A DNA stretch of 64,000 bases, taken from positions 69,760-133,759 of the forward strand of contig DUAE01000059.1 in the NCBI GenBank assembly GCA_012960975.1. Reading direction: 5' to 3'. Position numbers and translations under genes: made by a program. The stretch is from Candidatus Poseidoniales archaeon (GTDB lineage: Archaea > Thermoplasmatota > Poseidoniia > Poseidoniales > Thalassarchaeaceae). The stretch's first letter is position 1. Every line of letters starts with the position of its first letter. This document shows, piece by piece, positions 1,692 through 11,325 of the stretch. The notes below the pieces were generated by a model, which was not told the origin of the DNA, did no database searches, and saw only the letters and a program-made list of their open reading frames with translations.

Positions 1692-2927
1692 ATGAGTGGC
1701 GAAGACGTAGTAATTATTGGTGGAGCAAGGACGCCATTTTGTGAATGGCTCGGTGGGAAGCGCGGTGATGGAGAAACCGGTGGAAGATTAGCATCAGTTA
1801 GCGCTGAACAACTAGGTACTATCGCCATAACTGGCGCATTGGAAAAAACGGGAACTTCTCCGGAATCTGTCGATCATGTCGTAATGGGTCATGCGCTTCA
1901 GACTAGTAATCAAGCGATTTTCGGTGCTCGTCATGCGGGTTTGAATGCTGGAATTCCTCAAAAAGTTCCAATGTTGACGCTTAATCGCCTATGTGGAAGT
2001 GGCGTTCAGTCAATCATATCAGGTGCTCAAATGATTATGCTCGGTGAAGCCGAAGTCGTAGTTTCGGGTGGTATGGAAAATCTCAGTCAAGCACCTCATG
2101 TTTTACGTGGAATGCGAGATACGTACAAACTCGGTCGCCCTCCACGAGAAGGTGATGTATTATCAAAAAATATGGAAGATTACCTATTCACAAACCTGCT
2201 AGATGAAACCTGCAACTCCTTTATGGCTCAAACCAGCGACAAACTTTGTGCTCAGGTCGGAGTGTCCAGAGAAGAGACCGACGCTTTCGCTGTTTTGTCC
2301 CACTCTCGAACTGAGAAGAGCGTTGACAATGGTGTATGGGCAGAAGAAATTGTCAACGTCGAAACAGTAGATGGTCTTGTCACTGCAACTGAAGAAGATC
2401 ACTTCGTTCGTGGAACAACAGAAGAATCATTGAGTGGATTAAGAACACATTTTGGTCCGGATTCACTCGTTACAGCCGGAAATGCATCCGGGGTTGTGGA
2501 TGGGGCAGCAGCAGTCGTCATCAAATCGGCTAGCAGAGCAGAAGCGGACGGTGATGAACCATTAGCTCGAATCGTATCTTGGGGTATAGTCGGACTCGAC
2601 CCCTCAATTATGGCATATGGGCCAGTTCCAAGTAGTCTGAAGGCTCTTGAAAATGCAGAAATGTCAGTTGAAGATATCGATCGTTGGGAAATCAATGAAG
2701 CATTTGCTGGACAAGCAGTCGCGTGCATGAAAGAATTAGGAATTTCTTCAGACATTGTCAATGTAAATGGGGGAGCGGTTGGTCTTGGGCATCCATTATC
2801 TGCTACTGGTAGCCGCCTTGTCCTTACCCTCGCACTCGAGCTAAAACGCAGCGGTGGCAAGTATGGTATCGCTACTGCCTGCATTGGCGGTGGGCAAGGA
2901 ATCGCGCTCATTATCGAGTCAATTTGA
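1692..2927 (+). CDS. Acetyl-CoA C-acetyltransferase (thiolase)
   Basis: The thiolase active-site context NRLCGSGVQS is present. The C-terminal motifs NVNGGAVGLGHPLSATG and ACIGGGQGIA are also present. Length is 411 aa. Confidence 0.9.
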   Translation: MSGEDVVIIGGARTPFCEWLGGKRGDGETGGRLASVSAEQLGTIAITGALEKTGTSPESVDHVVMGHALQTSNQAIFGARHAGLNAGIPQKVPMLTLNRLCGSGVQSIISGAQMIMLGEAEVVVSGGMENLSQAPHVLRGMRDTYKLGRPPREGDVLSKNMEDYLFTNLLDETCNSFMAQTSDKLCAQVGVSREETDAFAVLSHSRTEKSVDNGVWAEEIVNVETVDGLVTATEEDHFVRGTTEESLSGLRTHFGPDSLVTAGNASGVVDGAAAVVIKSASRAEADGDEPLARIVSWGIVGLDPSIMAYGPVPSSLKALENAEMSVEDIDRWEINEAFAGQAVACMKELGISSDIVNVNGGAVGLGHPLSATGSRLVLTLALELKRSGGKYGIATACIGGGQGIALIIESI

Positions 2928-2954
2928 CCGTTATTTTTAATTTCATAGCAGGGG

Positions 2955-2964
2955 TTTAAAAATA
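2955..2964 (+). promoter_or_regulatory. Archaeal TATA-box-like element (TTTAAAAATA) upstream of the first DUF2061 gene
   Basis: TTTAAAAATA lies about 24-33 nt upstream of the ATG at 2988. That spacing implies a leaderless or near-leaderless transcript. Confidence 0.4.
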
Positions 2965-2987
2965 GGGTTCTCGGTACAAATTTTGAT

Positions 2988-3281
2988 ATGATGACTGAAC
3001 ACACAATTACTGAGCACATTGAAGGAGCAGGACACGCAGGCTGGAAACGCAGCCTAGTGAAAACAATAACTTGGAGGACTATCGGAACTATGGACACGAT
3101 TATCATAACGAGACTCGTCACTGGAAGTTGGTTAGCCGGAGCAGCTGTTGGAGGGACCGAATTATTCACCAAGATGTTTCTGTACTACTTCCACGAGCGA
3201 GGTTGGGCAGCGTTAGATTGGGGCCTAGAAGACGTTGATGTAAATGTAGACGTTTTAGTAAAGCCAGGATCTGTTCTTTGA
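2988..3281 (+). CDS. DUF2061-family small membrane protein
   Basis: The sequences KTITWRTIGTMDTIIITRLVTGSW and FLYYFHERGWAALDWG match the DUF2061 pattern. It is a paralog of the next gene. Confidence 0.7.
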   Translation: MMTEHTITEHIEGAGHAGWKRSLVKTITWRTIGTMDTIIITRLVTGSWLAGAAVGGTELFTKMFLYYFHERGWAALDWGLEDVDVNVDVLVKPGSVL

Positions 3282-3528
3282 AATTCTCTCTGATGACACT
3301 TTTGATGGGGTCGCTGTGTAAGAATTGGTAGACATTCCCGATGCAGTTTGAACATGTGTAAACAGACACATGATTGTTTGAGTTAGTGAGCCAAAGTGCA
3401 CACCATTTAGGTGCCCATTACAGTGAATGTCTGAAAATGAATCGCAATCATAATACAACCCTTACAAACCCCGTTTTACAAAAAAAACTGACGCAAAGTG
3501 CATAGGTGAAGTGCCGACCGTCGCGCTC

Positions 3529-3750
3529 ATGCACATGTACACACAACGTAGATTATTTGCTAAAACATTTGTTTGGAGAATCATTGCAACTTTAACCGGT
3601 GCGATAGTAACTTGGTTTCTGACAGGTGAAGTAGAAACAGCAGGTAAATTCATTATGATAGAATTCCCACTTAAGATGTGGTTCTACTATTTACATGAAA
3701 ATGGTTGGCATAACATCGAATGGGGAAAAGAATCAATTCAATCAGAATAA
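3529..3750 (+). CDS. DUF2061-family small membrane protein (second paralog)
   Basis: The sequences KTFVWRIIATLTGAIVTWFLTGE and MWFYYLHENGWHNIEWG parallel the upstream paralog. The track start at 3511 is GTG. The first ATGs are at 3529 and 3535. Confidence 0.65.
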   Translation: MHMYTQRRLFAKTFVWRIIATLTGAIVTWFLTGEVETAGKFIMIEFPLKMWFYYLHENGWHNIEWGKESIQSE

Positions 3751-3770: not shown

Positions 3771-4607
3771 TCAACCTAGTAAAATCATTTCTTTGATATC
3801 TATTAGATATCTTACTAGACTCACAAATACTGCGATAATAAACGGATATGTCAGAACTCGCTGAGGAAGCATCTTGATTGCAACCTTTGCACCAACCCAA
3901 GCAGTACCCGCTACTAAAATACAGATTAATATGAGATAGATTCCAAGCGTTTCTATTAATGCAGTTCCTGAACCATCTATTACAAGGTGAGTCAGGATAC
4001 CCATTGGAACCATCCAACTCTCAATAATGTAAGATGTTCCTGCTGCTTGATGTTGCTTATACTTTAGAGTTGAACGGTGTAGAGTAACGAAAATTGCACC
4101 GCCTCCAATACCTAGTAATCCTGATGCTGCCCCACCACCAAAACAGCCAGCGCGGTAGATTTTCAAGACTTTCCCTTCAACTTCTGGTGGTTGATAATCA
4201 CCATTTCCATTGCCATTCAGTTCAGAAGTCAATTTCTTTATTGTTGAGTATAATACCCAAATTAGAAGAAATGTCGCAGCGATTTTAATTGACATATCCC
4301 CAAGTTGATTGATGAAGATGGCTGCTAGAATTGCACCAAAAACTGCACCCATTAAAGCAGCATTTGTGCCCCTTTTCCCAACACTAGCAACAACATATCC
4401 ACCTTTTTCATGGGCAGCCCTGCTACCTAATGACACCATCCAAACGAGGATTAATGAAGTAACCAATGAGAGGTGAATATCCCATTCAAGAATGAATAGG
4501 AAAATTGGTACATAGAGAACCCCGCCACCTAGTCCAAGCGGGGCAAACATGAATGCAGTCATCAAAATTATTATTATTGCAATAATTATCTCAAGTTCCA
4601 TATTCAT
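3771..4607 (-). CDS. TauE/SafE-family (DUF81) anion exporter, sulfite-exporter type
   Basis: It is a polytopic membrane protein with the N-terminal PLGLGGGVLYVPIFLF motif and an internal repeat LLGIGGGAIFV, both typical of TauE/SafE. Its ATG overlaps the stop of the upstream molybdoenzyme gene (ATGA at 4604-4607). Confidence 0.8.
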   Translation of the reverse strand: MNMELEIIIAIIIILMTAFMFAPLGLGGGVLYVPIFLFILEWDIHLSLVTSLILVWMVSLGSRAAHEKGGYVVASVGKRGTNAALMGAVFGAILAAIFINQLGDMSIKIAATFLLIWVLYSTIKKLTSELNGNGNGDYQPPEVEGKVLKIYRAGCFGGGAASGLLGIGGGAIFVTLHRSTLKYKQHQAAGTSYIIESWMVPMGILTHLVIDGSGTALIETLGIYLILICILVAGTAWVGAKVAIKMLPQRVLTYPFIIAVFVSLVRYLIDIKEMILLG

Positions 4608-7336
4608 TCCTCTTTAGTAATGAACCAATGTTCTGGTCGCGGCCCCAATGGACGTTTCATCCATAATGGCCTACGTTCTCCACGTGGATGGGTCTCCCTT
4701 TCTTTAGCCCAATCATTCCACCGTTTATAATACTCAAACGACTTTTGTTGGTCAACCTCAATGTCTCCATACTCTTCGCCTTCTCCCGGGCGGGATAATT
4801 TGACTTTCTGGAGCCAACAATGGGCTCCTGAGATTGGATCTGGTTGTACGGCGTGAGTTATGTTCTGGTGAACCCCTCCGTCCCTCCACCAAATTCGATT
4901 GGTATCTGGGTCATCGGATTTCCACGGCTCGATACCACTGACAGTCCTCATTCGTATTTTGCCGTCACCGTTATCTTCGATGCTGACTGTATTTGTTAGG
5001 AAGCGATTACCAGCATCTTGATTTCGCCGCCACCGGCCAATGTGGTGACTGCAACCAACTACACCCGGTTTGATACCTTCAGTGACCCACACCTTATCGA
5101 CGAACCAGCCGATTTCAGTTTCGATTTTCAGTAAATCACCCTCGGCAACCCCCAGTTTCCTTGCGTCCTTAGGATGAATCCATATTGGATTTTTATGAGC
5201 GATTTCAACCAACCATTTTGCATTGGCTGAACGGGAGTGGATATGCTGTGGAAGGCGGAAATTAGGCAGTAAACAATATTCGTTTTCGCCAACAAGATTT
5301 TCGGGGTGAACATGTGATTTTTGCCTATAATGAGGTATTGAGTGTTCTGGATAGCCGAATTCAATCATGGTTTCAGAATAGAATTCTTGCTTTCCTGAAG
5401 GGGTTGGCCAACCCTCTTCCTCATACTTTTTGTATGTTGATTCTTCGATGAGGAATGCCCCATATTTCCTCATGTATCCTAGGGCGTCAGTACCTTCTTT
5501 TTCTGCGGCTTCAGGAAGGCCCGGAACACGTTCAAAAAGATACTGATAATATTCATCGATAGTAATTTTTTCACCTTCGCGATATGGGCTCATAAAATGC
5601 TTTCGAATCCCCATCGTGCCATCATCTATCCTCCACGATAACTCGTTCCAGAATTCATCTTCTTCCCAAACTTCCCCTGGATTGACTTCGTGAGTAAACT
5701 CGACTTCTCGTCCTTCTCTGCGTGCAAATTCACGCAGAACTGGTTGGCGGAACGCTACCCATTTGCCCGAGGAAGTCGCATAAGAATTGACGTCGTGTCG
5801 CTCAGCTGAATGACCCATTGGTAGAACATAATCAGCAAAGAATGCAGTTTCATTCCATGTTGGAGTCATTGCGATATGGCAGCCAACCGCTTCTTTATCC
5901 TGCAACATTTCCATCCATGAGAATCCATCTGGATAAGTCCAAACCGGATTGAATACACGAGTGAAGTAAACATCCATGCTACCTCGTCCATCTTTGATTA
6001 GGTGAGGTAGGATATGACTCATTTCGAAGTGAGACAGCGTGTATTCTGGTGGGAAATGTAGTTCGTTCCAGCCATCTGGATCTGGTGGATTATCGAAGAG
6101 CTCTGGTTTGAATTTAGACCATGAATTAGGAGATGTACCCCCTTCTGTTCCGACCGATCCTGTCAGGACATTGAGGAAATGAAGTGTACGACTTACTTGC
6201 CAGCCCCCAAGGTTACCGATAGAAGCACTGCGCCAAACATGGGTACACAATCGTGTCCCTGCACTTGCGACAACCTCTCCAACTTCGATTACCTGTTCGA
6301 CTGGGATTCTGCATTCTTCTGCAGCGAATTCAGGTGTATATTCAGCATATTCTTCGACCAGTAATTCGATAAATCTATCGAAATCACAAGGTTCATCTGG
6401 ATGGACAGCTTTCATCCAGGCATCCCAATTGACCTGAGTTTCCATGAATTCACGGTCATATAGGCCGCGCTCAATTATCATTTTCGCCCATGCGAGGAAG
6501 AGTGCCGACTCACTTCCCGGCCAGGTTGGCAGCCAATGATCTGCCATAGCTGCCGTATTAGACAGTCTAGGGTCGATGACGATGAGTTTCGCTCCATCCA
6601 TCATACCTTCTAGGATTCGTTGAGCGTGAGGATTGAAATAATGACCGGTTTCAAGGTGAGAAGAAGTTAGAAGGATGACCTTTGCATTTGTATGATCGGG
6701 ACTTGGTCTGTCGTGTTTATGCCAAAGCGCATATCCTGTTCGCGCTCCTGCCGAACAGATATTCGTGTGTGAATTATGACCGTCTACACCCCAGGCTTTG
6801 AGGACGCGATTCATGAATCCTTCATGACCAGGTCTACCAACGTGATAAACGACTTTATCGACTGCCCCGGTCTTCAAAGAGGTGCGAATTTTAGTTGAAA
6901 TTTCATCCAAGGCCTCATCCCAAGAAATGCGTTCCCAACCGCCTTGACCACGCTCCCCTACTCTTCGCATCGGGTATAATATACGTTCAGTATCCTGAAT
7001 TTGATTAATTGTAGCCGGTCCCTTCGCACAGTTTCTACCCCGGCTTCCAGGATGGTCTGGATTTCCTTCAAATTTGGATACTTGACCTGTTTCTTTGTCG
7101 ACATATGCGAGTAATCCACAAGCGGATTCGCAATTGAAACAAGTTGTTGGTACTAAGGAATATTTTTTCTCAATACGCACTGGCCAAGAATTCGCATCCA
7201 ATTCGATATGATCGTGCCATTCATCAGATGATGGGAATTTTCGGAGAGGTTCTAAATTTCCTTTGGTGACATCACGGTCAAGGTCTGGTATGATTCGCAG
7301 TTTTTGTGCGATACTTTCGATAATTGTCTTTGCCAT
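4604..7336 (-). CDS. Molybdopterin (bis-MGD, DMSO-reductase family) oxidoreductase catalytic subunit, no Tat signal
   Basis: The N-terminal 4Fe-4S motif is CFNCESAC...(27 aa)...C within EGNPDHPGSRGRNCAKG. The protein is about 910 aa. The track ORF extends to 7405 and would overlap the upstream gene. The ATG at 7336 (MAKTIIE) lies 10 nt after the upstream stop and has a GGTGA SD-like motif. Neither N-terminus contains a twin-arginine S/T-R-R-x-F-L-K motif. Confidence 0.85.
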   Translation of the reverse strand: MAKTIIESIAQKLRIIPDLDRDVTKGNLEPLRKFPSSDEWHDHIELDANSWPVRIEKKYSLVPTTCFNCESACGLLAYVDKETGQVSKFEGNPDHPGSRGRNCAKGPATINQIQDTERILYPMRRVGERGQGGWERISWDEALDEISTKIRTSLKTGAVDKVVYHVGRPGHEGFMNRVLKAWGVDGHNSHTNICSAGARTGYALWHKHDRPSPDHTNAKVILLTSSHLETGHYFNPHAQRILEGMMDGAKLIVIDPRLSNTAAMADHWLPTWPGSESALFLAWAKMIIERGLYDREFMETQVNWDAWMKAVHPDEPCDFDRFIELLVEEYAEYTPEFAAEECRIPVEQVIEVGEVVASAGTRLCTHVWRSASIGNLGGWQVSRTLHFLNVLTGSVGTEGGTSPNSWSKFKPELFDNPPDPDGWNELHFPPEYTLSHFEMSHILPHLIKDGRGSMDVYFTRVFNPVWTYPDGFSWMEMLQDKEAVGCHIAMTPTWNETAFFADYVLPMGHSAERHDVNSYATSSGKWVAFRQPVLREFARREGREVEFTHEVNPGEVWEEDEFWNELSWRIDDGTMGIRKHFMSPYREGEKITIDEYYQYLFERVPGLPEAAEKEGTDALGYMRKYGAFLIEESTYKKYEEEGWPTPSGKQEFYSETMIEFGYPEHSIPHYRQKSHVHPENLVGENEYCLLPNFRLPQHIHSRSANAKWLVEIAHKNPIWIHPKDARKLGVAEGDLLKIETEIGWFVDKVWVTEGIKPGVVGCSHHIGRWRRNQDAGNRFLTNTVSIEDNGDGKIRMRTVSGIEPWKSDDPDTNRIWWRDGGVHQNITHAVQPDPISGAHCWLQKVKLSRPGEGEEYGDIEVDQQKSFEYYKRWNDWAKERETHPRGERRPLWMKRPLGPRPEHWFITKEE

Positions 7337-7346
7337 ACCATTCACC

Positions 7347-8774
7347 TCAATGTAGCGTCTCCATCTGAGCACTGCGTAGGTCGTGTAGGATGTGCTTGTA
7401 TCCAAAAGTGAAAATTAGTGCTGCTCCGGCTAGAGCGGCATATTGCAAATATCCTGAGAAGATAAGTAGTAGAGCGGCTGCTCCACCGAAAACCAACATC
7501 TCAATTGAGCCTGTGATGATGATATCTTGATTGGTACGGTTCGCCCATTTCTCGCGCCCCTTTGCTTGCTTGAATAGCCAACCAGTGTAATTCCCGGTCA
7601 ACCAAGCTAGAGGGATCCCAAGAATTGCTAACCACATATGCCAAATTTCGGGCATATCGAGGAAAAATATTCCTAAATGTGCGACCATGATGTTAGCGAA
7701 TGCACCGAGTGTGTATCCTCCTTTCACGAGCCAGGAAGAAAAATTAGGTCGTAAGAGGACATAGATGAACCGCATTGGTTTGTCTAAATCATTGATGAGG
7801 AGTAATCCGGTTAATCCAAGTAATCCTATGCTCGCTACCAACGCGATGAGAATTTCATTGCCGAAATTGATTTCCCCAGTTATCATCGCGAGCATCATCA
7901 GAATGTACAAACCAGCTGCTGTGGATTTGGTCACGAGATACCCTGCAACATCCCAGTCCCAAAGGATGCCTTTTGCCGGTTGGTCATAGGAACGTTTCGG
8001 CTTCCCTGCTTGTTCATCCAAGCGCTCCATGACATCTCGAATAATTGCACGATCTCGTCCTGCTGCTGCTCGTGCCTTTTTCTCGAGAGCTAATTGTACT
8101 ATCATTGAATTTGTATCTGCTGCACCGAGACGTCGGTCAGCATATTTTGCATAATGACCAACTCCTGCTGCTTGATCGGTCCACAGGTATTCGCCGGTTC
8201 GTTCGGTTGCTTTTGGATCTAACATTTCTTCGCTTGTCTCAACATAGAATACATTGGGAATTGCACCCGATTCTGGTTTACGAACTGTTGTTACATGATC
8301 GCGTAAATATCCTGAGATTGAAGAATTTTCATCGTCAAGATCTCCAGAGACAATCGCTTCGGTCGGACAGACGATGACACATGCTGGCTCGTATGAATGT
8401 TCGATTCGATGAGCACAATAATTACATTTAGCAGCAGTGCCTTTGTTAGGGTCGATATATAGGGCATCGTAAGGACAGGCTTGCATGCAAGATTTACATC
8501 CAATACAACGATCATCATCGAAGTCGACGATTCCATCATCTCTTGTGAATAGCGCACTAGTTGGACAAATTGTTGTGCACGGTGAATCTTCGCAATGATT
8601 ACAGCGATGGACACTGAATTCACGAGTAACATCGGGATAAGTTCCAGTTTCGATATACTTTACGTGAGTGCGGTTCACTCCGATAGGGACATCGTGTTCC
8701 GACTTACATGCGACAGTACAAGCATGGCATCCAATACACTTGCGATTGTCGATGACGAAACCGTAATTTACCAT
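7347..8774 (-). CDS. 4Fe-4S ferredoxin subunit (DmsB/PsrB-like) fused to an NrfD/PsrC-like membrane quinone-interacting domain
   Basis: The N-terminal roughly 190 aa carry multiple CxxCxxCxxxCP clusters (CIGCHACTVACK, CNHCEDSPC, CIGCKSCMQACP, CNYCAHR...CPT). The C-terminal half has at least 6 TM helices with NrfD hallmarks (WDWDVAGYLVTKSTAAG and DLDKPMRFIYVLLRPNFSSWLVKG). Confidence 0.8.
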   Translation of the reverse strand: MVNYGFVIDNRKCIGCHACTVACKSEHDVPIGVNRTHVKYIETGTYPDVTREFSVHRCNHCEDSPCTTICPTSALFTRDDGIVDFDDDRCIGCKSCMQACPYDALYIDPNKGTAAKCNYCAHRIEHSYEPACVIVCPTEAIVSGDLDDENSSISGYLRDHVTTVRKPESGAIPNVFYVETSEEMLDPKATERTGEYLWTDQAAGVGHYAKYADRRLGAADTNSMIVQLALEKKARAAAGRDRAIIRDVMERLDEQAGKPKRSYDQPAKGILWDWDVAGYLVTKSTAAGLYILMMLAMITGEINFGNEILIALVASIGLLGLTGLLLINDLDKPMRFIYVLLRPNFSSWLVKGGYTLGAFANIMVAHLGIFFLDMPEIWHMWLAILGIPLAWLTGNYTGWLFKQAKGREKWANRTNQDIIITGSIEMLVFGGAAALLLIFSGYLQYAALAGAALIFTFGYKHILHDLRSAQMETLH

Positions 8775-8829
8775 TTATCAAATTCTCCTTAATTTTGATT
8801 TAACTATCTTTTCCCATTAGTCAAATAGA

Positions 8830-9981
8830 TCAGATTGTCTTACTTGAAGCGGCACATTCATTCTTGCCTAAATCCATTATATTCTGCTCATCATTACTAG
8901 GCGTCAAATGTCCTGAGTTGACTTTGCGAATTTGGTCATATATATCCGGTTGCTCCCTCATATTTGACTTGATGTAAGAAACAAACTCATCTACATCATC
9001 AATACCATAAATTTGCTCATTGTATTTTTTAACTGCTCCAAAATTGTTCATAATACGCATTTCTGAATCAGCCTCAATTGACCAATCAGTATAGTGCCCA
9101 GGGAGTACAATTAGTGAGTCAGGTAGAATTGATATTCGCTCTTTGAGAGTTGAATAGAGTGTTTTCGCCCATTCAACTACCTGCTTCCCCAAGTCAGGGC
9201 GACCAACGCTAACAATGAAAACAGTATCTCCCGAAATCAGAAATTTTTCATCAATTACGTACGAGGTTGAACCCGGTGTGTGCCCCGGTGAATGAGTGCA
9301 GAGGGTTGAAGGCCCACCTTCATTTGAAAACTCAAATGATTCACCATCCACTATAGAACGATATTCATGAATCCCAGAACCATAATCCCCCTCATGGGCG
9401 ACAAAAGTTGCACCTGTTGCCTCAGCAATTAGTGGGCTTCCTGAGATATAATCTGCCTGGAGATGAGTCTCAAAGGTATGTGTTATTTCCGCACCACGGG
9501 ATTCAGCAAACTTCTGGTAAAACGCTAGATTTCGAGAAGGGTCAAAGAGAAACATTTCCTCCCCATATACTAAGCCATACGAACATGATGCTTTCCCAGG
9601 CCTGTTGAATTGCCACATCTCATAGGAATCGTTGTCAGAGTTAACTCTCTTTGAAACTAGAACATTACCCCACGATATGATTCCGCCATCTAAGTGGGAA
9701 ACATTCTCCCTGCCAAATTCAGTCAACACAGAGGCGACATACTCAGAAGATCCTTGCTTTGCACAAACTATCATCAGTGTTTTATCCGATGGGACTTTTG
9801 CAACACTGGATTCGGGATCGATGATAAAATCAAAATAGGGGATGTTCAACATCTCAATGTCATTTGGTCCCTCTACAATAAAGTTGGAGAAATCCTCTTC
9901 ATTCCTTACATCAAGTAAAACGAAATCTTCACCGGACTCAATTGCTTCAAAAAGTTCGGTTGCGGTAAAAGAGGAGGCCAA
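8830..9981 (-). CDS. Rhodanese-domain / metallo-beta-lactamase-fold fusion protein (persulfide dioxygenase-like)
   Basis: The N-terminal rhodanese domain has a candidate active-site loop, VCAKQGSSE. The MBL fold shows ETHLQADYISG, HSPGHTPGS, GRPDL and LPGH. The start is TTG at 9981, preceded by a GAGGTGA SD 4-10 nt upstream, and lies 9 nt after the DsrE stop. Confidence 0.75.
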   Translation of the reverse strand: MASSFTATELFEAIESGEDFVLLDVRNEEDFSNFIVEGPNDIEMLNIPYFDFIIDPESSVAKVPSDKTLMIVCAKQGSSEYVASVLTEFGRENVSHLDGGIISWGNVLVSKRVNSDNDSYEMWQFNRPGKASCSYGLVYGEEMFLFDPSRNLAFYQKFAESRGAEITHTFETHLQADYISGSPLIAEATGATFVAHEGDYGSGIHEYRSIVDGESFEFSNEGGPSTLCTHSPGHTPGSTSYVIDEKFLISGDTVFIVSVGRPDLGKQVVEWAKTLYSTLKERISILPDSLIVLPGHYTDWSIEADSEMRIMNNFGAVKKYNEQIYGIDDVDEFVSYIKSNMREQPDIYDQIRKVNSGHLTPSNDEQNIMDLGKNECAASSKTI

Positions 9982-9990
9982 ATACTCACC

Positions 9991-10500
9991 TCAAATGAAA
10001 AGTTGTATATCCGCGTCAGCTGCAAATTCTAGGAACGTAGCCGCTCCGCCAATGTTTACACCATCAATGAATTCATCTCTTTCAAATCCAAAGACATCCA
10101 TCGTCATTTGACAGCCAATCATCTCAACACCGAGTTGCTCGCACATATCCCGAAGTTCAGTCACAGTTGCTACGCCTTTGTTCTTGAAGGTCTTCTTCAT
10201 GAGGCTGGTTGCAACAGTCTCAAAACCTGGGACGTTATTTGATACGACATTTGGAATAGGCCAATTAAGTCCTTGGAAAGCTTTTGGACCAAATGGCATT
10301 TTCATCGGCATTGCAGGATTTCCTGCTGGGCTAACCTTTGCCTTGATTGTCTTCTTCAATAGAGGTAACCCATAGAAAGTGAAGAACATTTTGACATTCA
10401 TGTCCATTGCTGCTGCCGTAGATGCAAGAATGAATGGAGGGTATGCCCAATCGAGCGTACCCTTACTAGCAATGATTGCCATTGATTTCCTTTCACCCAT
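9991..10500 (-). CDS. DsrE/DsrF-family sulfur-relay protein (COG2210-like)
   Basis: MAIIASKGTLDWAYPPFILASTAAAMDMNVKMFFTFYGL and CQMTMDVFG are typical of DsrE-family proteins found beside TusA. The ATG at 10500 is 1 nt from the TusA stop. The track start at 10509 is GTG. Confidence 0.75.
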   Translation of the reverse strand: MGERKSMAIIASKGTLDWAYPPFILASTAAAMDMNVKMFFTFYGLPLLKKTIKAKVSPAGNPAMPMKMPFGPKAFQGLNWPIPNVVSNNVPGFETVATSLMKKTFKNKGVATVTELRDMCEQLGVEMIGCQMTMDVFGFERDEFIDGVNIGGAATFLEFAADADIQLFI

Positions 10501-10501
10501 T

Positions 10502-10735
10502 TTATTCACCCTTCCTTATGTAGAAAACAAATTTGTCTCCTTCTTCGCAATTCTCGACTAATTCATGCCCAACACGAGATGTCCACGCAGGCATATCGCT
10601 ACATGCACCGGGATCAGTTGCGATGACTCGCAAAACTTCACCATCTTTCATCGTATCAATTTTCATTTTCGTTTTGAGGATTGGCATCGGGCAATTCATC
10701 CCACTACAATCTAATTCTTCGTTATAATCTGTCAT
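10502..10735 (-). CDS. tusA: TusA-family sulfurtransferase
   Basis: It is 77 aa and carries the diagnostic CPMP motif in LDCSGMNCPMPILKTK. Its ATG overlaps the ArsR stop (ATGA). Confidence 0.85.
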   Translation of the reverse strand: MTDYNEELDCSGMNCPMPILKTKMKIDTMKDGEVLRVIATDPGACSDMPAWTSRVGHELVENCEEGDKFVFYIRKGE

Positions 10736-11076
10736 TTGTTCATCTCCTTAGTTGTCATTCTTTCCTCTTGTAATTCTTCGAAGCATGCGAGCATCTTTCC
10801 AATCAATGGATTAGCGATAGAATAGAACACCCGATTTCCATCTCGTCGAGAAGTTACGATTCCTTCACGGTACATTCGTCGAAGATGTTGAGACGTGGTA
10901 GATTGGCCGATTCCAAGAGATTCTTGGACCTCGGTGACGGTACTTTCTTCAATATTTAATTTCTCTACAATTCTGATTCGTTCAGGGTGTCCGAGCGTCT
11001 TAATAATGCTAGATACTTTTAGTAAAAAATCGGAATCAAGAATATGATTACTTGAGTCAGATTGGTTCAATGCCAT
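10732..11076 (-). CDS. ArsR/SmtB-family winged-helix transcriptional regulator
   Basis: LGHPERIRIVEKL...VTEVQESLGIGQSTTSQHLRRMYREGIVTSRRDGNRVFYSI is a canonical ArsR HTH plus wing. It is the first gene of the sulfur operon. Confidence 0.85.
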   Translation of the reverse strand: MALNQSDSSNHILDSDFLLKVSSIIKTLGHPERIRIVEKLNIEESTVTEVQESLGIGQSTTSQHLRRMYREGIVTSRRDGNRVFYSIANPLIGKMLACFEELQEERMTTKEMNK

Positions 11077-11169
11077 AGGTTTCGGGTTAAGTGTCAGGAT
11101 ATAGTCTTTAATGAATATTTGAATATAGTGATATTGAAGATTGCCTGTTTGATTATTGTATTAAGCACG

Positions 11170-11200
11170 GCTCCGGTGTTTCTTGTGGAAACACTCCGGA
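11170..11200. promoter_or_regulatory. GC-containing imperfect inverted repeat (hairpin) between the TraB gene end and the ArsR promoter
   Basis: CTCCGGTGTTTC-ttgtg-GAAACA(CT)CCGGAG forms a 12-bp stem with a 2-nt bulge. It lies 125 nt downstream of the TraB stop and 95 nt upstream of the ArsR start. An AT-rich AATATTTGAATATAGTGATATT block at 11114-11135 sits between it and the ArsR ATG. Confidence 0.4.
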
Positions 11201-11325
11201 GACATCAATTCTAATAAGTGGATAAAATGATTGCAGAAGGGTGAACTGCTGCTTGGATTCGTAACAGTGGTCGCTTTGAGAAGTACTGAATCTGTTCTTC
11301 TCCATGTTCGGTATTATTTTATTCT

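Follow-up and report, generated by a model that had tools for sequence, protein, structure and literature searches.

We analysed a 64,000-nt window (the whole stretch of DNA studied; contig DUAE01000059.1, positions 69,760 to 133,759) of a Poseidoniales (Marine Group II, MGII) archaeon and, within it, a block of seven co-directional open reading frames (ORFs) on the minus strand (11076-3771). In order, these encode ArsR, TusA, DsrE2, a rhodanese fused to a metallo-β-lactamase (MBL) domain (Rhd-MBL), an iron-sulfur protein fused to a membrane anchor (FeS::NrfD), a molybdoenzyme catalytic subunit (Mo subunit) and TauE. The block is an ancestral two-gene operon, FeS::NrfD plus the Mo subunit (hereafter the core), which has been extended in this strain by accessory genes. 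Judging from protein features and from the gene neighbourhoods of homologues, we give an even chance to the reading that the core carries out sulfite:quinone oxidation in the cytoplasm, with a variable persulfide relay supplying it and TauE as the outlet. An earlier note on this DNA had interpreted the block as one seven-gene module for persulfide and sulfite oxidation with anion export, governed by a BigR-like sensor and built around a SoeABC-type enzyme. What that note had seen in the sequence was confirmed, while the single conserved module, the BigR-like sensor and the canonical SoeABC were not supported.

In the mechanism that we favour, sulfane sulfur or thiosulfate from the breakdown of cysteine or organosulfur compounds would be loaded as protein persulfides onto the rhodanese Cys-73, TusA and DsrE2, and the MBL domain of Rhd-MBL would convert the persulfide sulfur to sulfite. 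The Mo subunit would then oxidize sulfite to sulfate in the cytoplasm, and the electrons would pass from its FS0 cluster through four [4Fe-4S] clusters to quinone at the six-helix anchor and on to the aerobic chain. TauE would export an anion as its presumed cargo, and the ArsR repressor, responding to a presumed signal, would gate the cassette of regulatory and relay genes.

A conserved core with variable neighbours

Homologues of the Mo subunit number in the thousands. A scan of one genome per species gave 80 loci, to which plasmid and chromid records were added. Identity to the window protein is 73-89% within Poseidoniales, 68-69% in Marinimicrobia and 57-63% in Saprospiraceae, Flavobacteriaceae, Cyclobacteriaceae, Planctomycetota, Acidobacteriota and others; on plasmids or chromids of Natrinema, Halomarina, Rhodococcus jostii RHA1 (pRHL3) and Thermomicrobium roseum (megaplasmid) it is 52-55%. 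Of 86 sources, which span archaea and six or more bacterial phyla at identities of 52-91%, 76 have the FeS::NrfD gene directly before the Mo gene, and this two-gene unit is the conserved entity.

In Poseidoniales, the core occupies a fixed chromosomal site between TraB and the DUF2061, thiolase and flotillin genes. Nothing separates TraB from the fusion gene in 9 of the 12 readable Poseidoniales loci of the genome scan. Rhd-MBL precedes the core in L004, L009 and L011, joined in L004 by TusA-DsrE2. The identical arrangement of all seven genes recurs in two public metagenome-assembled genomes (MAGs), GCA_015660245.1 and GCA_029935975.1 (L097), the latter with DNA 100% identical to the window over 11 kb, and the exact DsrE2 sequence is on record in 10 contigs.

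Two loci, L091 and L095, document a strain-level exchange. Their flanks are 95-97% nucleotide-identical to the window, and the similarity found by blastn breaks exactly at 11285 and 9996; in place of the 1,288 bp between these points (window 9997-11284) stand 268 bp with a dodecin gene (6512-6779 in L091). Both loci keep Rhd-MBL, the core and TauE despite the swap. The view of the seven genes as one conserved module therefore had to be given up, since most of the readable Poseidoniales loci are core-only and ArsR-TusA-DsrE2 is swapped for dodecin at ~96% identity. Synteny elsewhere, on the other hand, was found as the earlier note had expected, in the two MAGs with all seven genes and in a Marinimicrobia locus with six of them. 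The dodecin (a flavin-storage protein) of the alternative allele is 67-110 aa long, and the region from TraB to the operon is hypervariable.

At the other end of the block, TauE follows the Mo gene in the window and in L001, L006, L010, L091, L093, L096 and L097, and does not follow it in L002, L003, L005, L007, L012 and L061. Because of the cassette swap and these patchy neighbours, we describe the block as a mosaic, in which an old core is combined with two semi-stable genes (Rhd-MBL, TauE) and with a cassette for regulation and relay that varies at the level of strains.

The Marinimicrobia locus (L016) reads ArsR-TusA-DsrE2-RhdMBL-BC-A, where BC is the fusion and A the Mo subunit, so that six of the seven genes stand in the same order, at 48-76% identity. 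In a neighbour-joining (NJ) tree (Kimura distances, 100 bootstraps; not a maximum-likelihood tree, and built without SoeA, Wolinella or Thermus PsrA, ArrA and SreA), the window Mo protein pairs with a Marinimicrobia protein at 100% bootstrap. Synteny and pairing together fit the inter-domain transfer that was proposed earlier (PMC3906813).

A near-identical strain is represented by a metagenome scaffold (L093:1096-3720) in which the matches to window positions 9078-8777 and 7270-6983 are missing. These stretches correspond to the 3' end of Rhd-MBL with the spacer before the fusion gene, and to the N-terminal FS0 region of the Mo subunit, and the Mo protein predicted on this scaffold has 788 aa and no Fe4S4 domain. 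The gaps could reflect gene decay or a scaffolding artefact.

Architecture and relatives of the molybdoenzyme

The soluble half of FeS::NrfD contains 16 Cys residues in four ferredoxin-type cluster motifs, begins directly at the first of them and matches PsrB (2vpw_B, E 7e-47). In the AlphaFold2 model of the fusion protein the FeS half has a predicted local distance difference test score (pLDDT) below 50, and the membrane half alone was used. It consists of six transmembrane (TM) helices (pLDDT ~90), and Foldseek matches it to PsrC (2vpw_C, E 6e-5, TM-score 0.54) and then to ActC. As NrfD proteins usually have 8-10 helices (PMC8076601), the six helices and the PsrC match identify the anchor as a shortened NrfD type. 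The FeS domain and the K/R-rich loops 327-355 and 388-417 share one side of the membrane, a placement that fits a cytoplasmic FeS domain.

In the Mo subunit, the FS0 [4Fe-4S] motif is C66-x2-C69-x3-C73...C103, and Cys-194 (TNICSAG) aligns with the molybdenum-ligand Cys of PsrA, whose structure is the best PDB match (2vpw_A, E 8e-38). Inspection of the sequence from either candidate start, ATG 7336 or the upstream TTG 7405, revealed no hydrophobic stretch preceded by a twin-arginine motif. Conservation from archaea to bacteria extends over the first 60 residues, with I6, E7 and P17 invariant, and because of it the N-terminus is not regarded as a signal peptide. Together with the loop placement, these features support a complex that faces the cytoplasm and whose Mo subunit lacks a signal for twin-arginine translocation (Tat), in agreement with the earlier note.

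The Mo subunit also carries a Trp/Arg-rich C-terminal extension of ~75 aa (…YYKRWNDWAKERETHPRGERRPLWMKRPLGPRPEHWF…; window 4604-4830) that is absent from PsrA. Within it, W873, P884, R888, R889, W892, R895 and P899 are invariant from archaea to Bacteroidota. The extension is a signature of the family that may serve as a contact to the fused anchor or to the membrane.

The family is a clade with 97% bootstrap support in the NJ tree, lies inside a 100% clade that adds a few deeper relatives, and stands apart from E. coli-plasmid PhsA, TtrA and DmsA; TtrA is the nearest labelled branch, weakly supported. The expectation that the catalytic subunit would not nest within reductase lineages was thus borne out for PhsA, TtrA and DmsA, the lineages present in this tree. 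The column of the metal ligand holds Cys in the family (TNICSAG) and Ser in DmsA (GDYSSAQ). Among solved structures, PsrA, PsrB and PsrC are nearest, and ArrA and ArrB come next. Among NCBIfam models, the best match of the Mo subunit is the PhsA equivalog with 197 bits against a cut-off of 694; the DmsA/YnfE subfamily is matched with 191 bits against 778, at ~24% identity to DmsA.

SoeA appeared neither among the matches to NCBIfam models, PDB entries and plasmids (tblastn) nor among the names of relatives. The plasmid search returned members of the family and two relatives with B-C-A-TorD genes (Sulfurovum, 37%; Azoarcus, 30%), followed by matches at the level of DmsA; a Ralstonia match considered as a SoeA candidate was rejected as an unrelated enzyme of 758 aa. 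In the Sulfurovum mangrovi plasmid (L085:6001-9130), the 37% relative is spread over two ORFs of 337 and 737 aa and has no coding sequence in PLSDB, whose gene table is not complete and leaves out pseudogenes. This relative may have decayed to a pseudogene or may include a stop codon that is recoded in frame. There and in Azoarcus KH32C (L084), B, C and A are separate genes, accompanied by TorD and an extra 4Fe-4S protein.

The core itself is already in the literature under other names. PSR-like complexes (PSR, polysulfide reductase) of green sulfur bacteria were reportedly treated by Frigaard and Bryant in 2008 and by Gregersen in 2011. A ‘psrBCA’ cluster with a psrBC fusion and no Tat signal was described on Marine Group A (MGA) fosmids, with its closest relatives on MGII fosmids (Wright 2014, PMC3906813). 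The MGA and MGII proteins branch with a cytoplasmic PSR complex of green sulfur bacteria (PMC3906813) that was proposed to oxidize Dsr-made sulfite (PMC3906813; PMC9324843), and PSRLC3 was later equated with an inferred sulfite oxidase (PMC9324843). Papers on MGII have assigned a cluster of ‘molybdopterin oxidoreductase + 4Fe-4S ferredoxin + TraB’ to anaerobic respiration of dimethyl sulfoxide (DMSO) (PMC6741140).

Our core shares with psrBCA of MGA, MGII and green sulfur bacteria the BC-then-A order, the psrBC fusion and the absence of Tat, and the MGII/Marinimicrobia pairing in our tree agrees with the published one. The earlier work, however, dealt with the core together with molybdenum-cofactor genes or a rhodanese, and left its function between polysulfide reduction and sulfide or sulfite oxidation, whereas ArsR-TusA-DsrE2, Rhd-MBL and TauE accompany the core in our block, and many more phyla enter the survey of its context. 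The arrangement had been thought uncharacterized in archaea. This does not apply to the core, which was published from MGII fosmids, but it does apply to the combination with relay, MBL and exporter genes in an archaeon, which is new here; new as well are the exchange of the cassette between strains and the wide range of phyla over which the context was compared. A literature search with the accessions and one locus tag of cultured homologues returned nothing.

SoeABC of Allochromatium vinosum, Aquifex aeolicus and Ruegeria pomeroyi resembles the family in facing the cytoplasm without Tat, in its four-cluster FeS subunit and NrfD-type anchor, and in its association with sulfite-producing pathways and TauE-type exporters. 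Both also have a catalytic subunit of roughly 910-970 aa with a molybdenum-bis(pyranopterin guanine dinucleotide) (Mo-bisPGD) cofactor. The metal ligand of SoeA is Cys (PMC10100899), as here. In contrast, the family has B and C fused, an anchor of six instead of eight TM helices, and the order BC-A instead of A-B-C. Of the proposal that the enzyme is of the SoeABC type, the cytoplasmic topology, the Cys ligand and FS0 therefore stand, while the fusion, the helix number and the gene order disagree. Because the subunit architecture differs and the tree contained no SoeA, we do not file the family under SoeABC, although by analogy it is like SoeABC in topology and, probably, in role.

PsrABC (Thermus thermophilus, 2VPZ) and PhsABC provide the best sequence or structure matches for all three modules and share the Cys ligand and the FS0 motif. 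Identity is ~25-30% over parts of the proteins, and the family differs from both in lacking Tat, in lying on the opposite face of the membrane, in its fused and shortened anchor, and in ~150 extra residues that include the C-terminal extension; from PhsA it is also set apart as a separate clade of the NJ tree.

Sulfur genes around the core and competing readings

Genes for MBL proteins resembling persulfide dioxygenases (PDO) lie within 10 kb of the core in 27 of the 80 genome loci, and a SulP/STAS sulfate permease is near it in 27 loci. The MBL proteins come in three non-orthologous forms, namely Rhd-MBL with THLQADY, Rhd-MBL with THIHADH (Natrinema) and a CstB-like MBL-rhodanese with THFHADF (Bacteroidota, Rhodococcus); the Bacteroidota form accounts for most of the MBL-positive loci. 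Besides SulP/STAS, further neighbours in Bacteroidota are split YeeE/Sulf_transp proteins, a Pyr_redox_2 flavoprotein (SQR-like) with DUF1641, Crp regulators, thioredoxins and MoaD/MoaE/MobA. In R. jostii RHA1 the core is found with ArsR, two MBL proteins, DsrE, TusA and Mrp/NBP35, and in Natrinema with the rhodanese-MBL with its canonical motif, TauE, Mrp and MobA. The core of T. roseum is accompanied by a CsoR-type regulator, annotated as ‘metal-sensitive transcriptional regulator’, which we infer to be CstR-like.

Among the carriers, we take Poseidoniales, Flavobacteriaceae, Saprospiraceae, R. jostii RHA1, T. roseum and Natrinema to be aerobes. The recurrence of three non-orthologous PDO-like proteins beside the core and the many aerobes among its carriers give the strongest reason to think that the enzyme acts downstream of persulfide oxidation, most simply on sulfite, after which SulP or TauE would export sulfate or sulfite. 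The context in six phyla speaks for an oxidative role in sulfur metabolism, with sulfite:quinone oxidation as the most likely reaction. The sulfite/sulfate couple lies far below any quinone, and the redox energetics therefore also fit sulfite oxidation, while quinol-driven reduction of polysulfide or thiosulfate runs uphill and is normally periplasmic. The tie of the enzyme to persulfide, sulfite and sulfate handling, which the earlier note had drawn from this single locus, is thus reached independently from gene neighbourhoods in many phyla.

In L082 (R. jostii RHA1 pRHL3) and L083 (Natrinema caseinilyticum plasmid), the Mrp/NBP35 Fe-S carrier gene lies directly 3' of the Mo gene. Its product is probably a dedicated maturation factor; the Poseidoniales operon lacks this gene.

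For all seven proteins of the window, Pfam and NCBIfam profile searches agree with the domain calls made before. TusA carries the CPxP Cys in the motif LDCSGMNCPMP and does not reach the E. coli TusA equivalog (63 vs. 78 bits), while DsrE2 passes its NCBIfam equivalog cut-off (216 vs. 210 bits); no hydrophobic segment was found in DsrE2. ArsR exceeds the cut-off of an NCBIfam metalloregulator subfamily (78 vs. 55 bits) and lacks the metal-binding CVC motif. It also lacks the Cys pair of BigR, as there is no α3 Cys, which the regulators of the bacterial neighbours have, and in comparison with regulators beside homologous operons the C-terminal Cys position is the only one kept (5 of 6 sequences). 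The single Cys and a score of 51 bits against the BigR equivalog cut-off of 155 do not support the assignment as a BigR-type persulfide sensor.

The 117 full-length homologues of Rhd-MBL form with it a sharply delimited family. The family signature comprises the invariant rhodanese C73 (CAKxGS), FETHLQADYISG, HxPGHTPGST and GRPDLG, and the C-terminus DLGKNxCAAS contains the invariant C376. Where the canonical motif is HxHxDH, the family has an invariant THLQADY (HxQxDY), in which the second His is always Gln. H173, H234 and D252, at least 99% conserved, align to the iron-ligand positions of ETHE1 and CstB; in ETHE1 we take this triad to be H79, H135 and D154. The closest PDB entries are 3tp9 (E 1e-18), CstB (3r2u) and ETHE1 (4chl). 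The Blh equivalog is not reached (26 vs. 625 bits), and homologues with 52-56% identity occur in anaerobic Desulfobacterales, including the Olavius Delta-1 symbiont. Of the proposed persulfide dioxygenase, the positions of the iron triad are thus kept, while the THLQADY motif, the Blh score and the relatives in anaerobes speak against it, which makes this role possible but not secure. O2-independent sulfur transfer or hydrolysis via the two Cys residues is a possible alternative.

In the Desulfobacterales/Olavius Delta-1 loci (L086-L089), Rhd-MBL (THLQADY, C-terminal Cys) and TusA form a conserved pair in genomes of the sulfate-reducer type, where it lies among genes of acyl-CoA metabolism, with the molybdoenzyme not nearby.

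Two groups of known gene clusters resemble the accessory part of the block. The cst-type operons for persulfide detoxification include tauE-cstR-cstA-cstB-sqr of S. aureus, yrkDEFHIJ of B. subtilis and BigR-Blh of Xylella and Agrobacterium. They likewise combine a redox-sensing repressor, TusA, a DsrE-like protein, a rhodanese, a PDO-like MBL enzyme and TauE. Here, by contrast, the MBL enzyme has the domain order Rhd-MBL instead of MBL-Rhd(-Rhd), an HxQxDY motif and an additional invariant Cys at its C-terminus; the regulator contains one Cys, an sqr gene is missing, and the genes are coupled to a respiratory molybdoenzyme. Sulfur-relay clusters of the rhd-tusA-dsrE2 type were reportedly treated by Stockdreher in 2014. 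The synteny of TusA, DsrE2 and rhodanese is known from sulfur oxidizers with rDsr or sHdr (Tanabe et al. 2024, PMC11094781); our block differs in that no Dsr or sHdr genes are nearby, the rhodanese is fused to MBL and the host is a planktonic heterotrophic archaeon.

Several observations weigh against sulfite:quinone oxidation. The closest structure of the Mo subunit (PsrA) and its closest curated match (PhsA) are reductases, and in IMG the nearest named relatives, at 34-36% identity, are called ‘thiosulfate/polysulfide reductase chain A’, while the family itself bears a COG name without any soeA-type name and has received no soeA annotation from NCBI. In a survey of NrfD types, SoeC was confined to Proteobacteria, Clostridia and Aquificae (PMC8076601). 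In most Poseidoniales no sulfur-relay genes adjoin the core, and a phmmer search of the 64-kb window with neighbour families from other loci found no SQR-like, SulP, YeeE, Mrp, MobA or MoaE homologue. The dioxygenase role of Rhd-MBL is also uncertain because its PDO motif deviates and close relatives live in anaerobes. Could the core instead be a cytoplasmic, Psr/Phs-like reductase of polysulfide, persulfide or thiosulfate, which would use quinol to release sulfide or to split thiosulfate delivered by the relay? ‘Polysulfide reductase’ is the published annotation (PMC3906813). The PsrA, PsrB and PhsA matches and the IMG names point the same way, as do the sulfane-sulfur relay directly upstream of the core and the anaerobic relatives of Rhd-MBL. 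We nevertheless consider such a reductase unlikely, since many carriers are obligate aerobes, the enzyme faces the cytoplasm, and its recurrent neighbours are oxidative (CstB-like PDO, SQR-like flavoprotein, sulfate/sulfite exporters). Moreover, the family stands outside the PhsA branch, scores far below the cut-offs of the Psr/Phs models, and would have to catalyse a reduction that is endergonic and generally periplasmic.

The block might also consist of two unrelated neighbours, a BC-A(-TauE) operon with a role of its own and a cst-like persulfide-stress island in the hypervariable spot. The clean dodecin swap between nearly identical strains, the core standing alone at the same locus in nine of twelve Poseidoniales, the 55-nt gap with its own Shine-Dalgarno (SD) sequence before the core, and the Rhd-MBL and TusA pairs of Desulfobacterales all fit such a division. 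We give it a small chance, because core and MBL genes are associated independently, through MBL types that are not orthologous, in Marinimicrobia, Bacteroidota, Rhodococcus and Natrinema, and because all genes of the block in the window are co-directional and tightly coupled. Another oxyanion or metalloid as substrate (arsenite, selenite, or tetrathionate/thiosulfate interconversion), with ArsR as a metalloid sensor, would fit the ArsR/SmtB regulators that recur beside the operon and TtrA as the nearest, weakly supported, labelled branch. By its title, one paper, which mentions SoeA 16 times, also puts forward an alternative candidate for arsenite oxidation in Thioalkalivibrio (PMC6620896). 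It is quite improbable, however, given that ars, aio and arx genes are not nearby, that the neighbours are sulfur-specific (TusA, DsrE2, rhodanese, SulP, TauE, YeeE) and that ArsR lacks the CVC motif. Respiratory reduction of DMSO or trimethylamine N-oxide under anaerobic conditions, to which the published MGII interpretation (PMC6741140) and the DmsA/YnfE match correspond, appears very improbable: the ligand is Cys and not Ser, there is no Tat signal, identity to DmsA and the score of its model are low, TraB is merely a syntenic neighbour, and the context is one of sulfur trafficking and not of S- or N-oxides.

MGII, which rank with the most abundant archaea of the plankton, lack a cultured representative, and their conserved molybdoenzyme has so far been taken as evidence for anaerobic DMSO respiration or polysulfide reduction. 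If sulfite:quinone oxidation fed by a persulfide relay is correct, MGII, Marinimicrobia and Bacteroidota would join oxidative sulfur cycling in oxic seawater and gain energy from organosulfur breakdown. It would also help to explain surveys in which SQR and PDO genes are abundant, yet direct sulfite oxidases scarce (PMC12345210). A bolder proposal, which we put forward tentatively and with some doubt, is that the fused ‘PsrBC + A’ family as a whole is a widespread, unrecognized cytoplasmic sulfite (or thiosulfate):quinone oxidoreductase missed by the markers soeABC, sorAB, SUOX and aprAB, and that Rhd-MBL (HxQxDY, C-terminal Cys) is a new persulfide-processing enzyme, maybe O2-independent. Some of the most abundant heterotrophs of the sea (MGII archaea, SAR406/Marinimicrobia, Flavobacteriia, Saprospiraceae) would then obtain respiratory electrons from organosulfur-derived sulfite. 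The function is directly testable because cultured, tractable carriers exist, namely R. jostii RHA1, T. roseum, Flavilitoribacter, Lutibacter and Natrinema.

Layout of the locus

The window has a GC content of ~44%, and the closest proteins bear the names Candidatus Poseidoniaceae, Poseidoniales or Thermoplasmatota archaeon, in line with the archaeal host assumed from the start. The features of the block are collected in Table 1.

Table 1. Genes and other features of the block, in window coordinates.
Feature	Position	Strand	Basis
ArsR/SmtB winged-helix regulator, 114 aa, sole Cys = C98	10732..11076	-	Pfam HTH_5, E 2e-11
TusA sulfur carrier, 77 aa, CPMP active-site motif	10502..10735	-	Pfam TusA, 89 bits vs. 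28.6; ATGA overlap with ArsR stop
DsrE2-type sulfur carrier, 169 aa, soluble	9991..10500	-	NCBIfam DsrE2 equivalog; Pfam DrsE_2, 175 bits
Strain-variable cassette ArsR-TusA-DsrE2 with upstream spacer	9997..11284	.	blastn of window vs. L091 and L095
Rhd-MBL, N-terminal rhodanese fused to PDO-like MBL, 383 aa	8830..9981	-	Pfam Rhodanese and Lactamase_B
55-nt spacer with AAGGAG	8775..8829	-	Sequence; core operon of sister genomes starts here
FeS::NrfD fusion, 475 aa: PsrB-like 4x[4Fe-4S] part (~1-200) and NrfD/PsrC-like anchor (~274-470)	7347..8774	-	Pfam Fer4_11 and NrfD
Tat-less Mo/W-bisPGD catalytic subunit, 910 aa	4604..7336	-	Pfam Molybdop_Fe4S4, Molybdopterin and Molydop_binding
TauE/SafE-family anion exporter (predicted), 278 aa	3771..4607	-	Pfam TauE (PF01925), 84 bits vs. 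32.6, residues 11-266 of 278; ATGA overlap with Mo gene

The tight junctions described in the earlier note could be read directly in the sequence, including the overlaps, the short gaps and the SD-like motifs. ATGA overlaps are located at 10735-10732 (ArsR/TusA) and 4607-4604 (Mo subunit/TauE). The TusA stop codon TAA (10504-10502) is followed after 1 nt by the DsrE2 ATG at 10500; a mechanical ORF list places this start at GTG 10509, while public gene calls use the ATG form. Rhd-MBL starts at TTG 9981, 9 nt after the DsrE2 TGA, and the 910-aa form of the Mo subunit at ATG 7336, 10 nt after the FeS::NrfD TGA. Both of these stop codons are overlapped by GAGGTGA (9992-9986 and 7348-7342), a motif that matches the canonical anti-SD sequence of archaeal 16S rRNA. 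It occurs 16 times in the window, compared to 7.4 ± 2.6 expected copies, and none of 100 shuffles reached 16. The junction between Rhd-MBL and FeS::NrfD (8829-8775), which was absent from the earlier note, is the only long gap within the block, and the ancestral core operon may have an internal start of its own here.

Upstream of ArsR, no inverted repeat resembling an operator was found. A scan for sigma-70 promoters and intrinsic terminators, a model that is not applicable to archaea, gave counts at the level of shuffled sequence.

The block is flanked by housekeeping genes, on one side those for TraB, dihydropteroate synthase, aTrm56 and carbamoyl-phosphate synthase, and on the other two DUF2061 genes, thiolase and flotillin. 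The DUF2061 genes encode small membrane proteins (window 2988-3281 and 3511-3750, plus strand) and are convergent with TauE. Most Poseidoniales loci (L001-L003, L005, L007, L012, L061, L091, L093 and L096) have them beside the Mo gene, as a pair or in single copy, and a functional link with the operon is possible. A 257-aa minus-strand ORF (2399-3172), which has no Pfam match, lies opposite the thiolase gene and overlaps it. Because its matches elsewhere track thiolase, it is very likely a shadow ORF.

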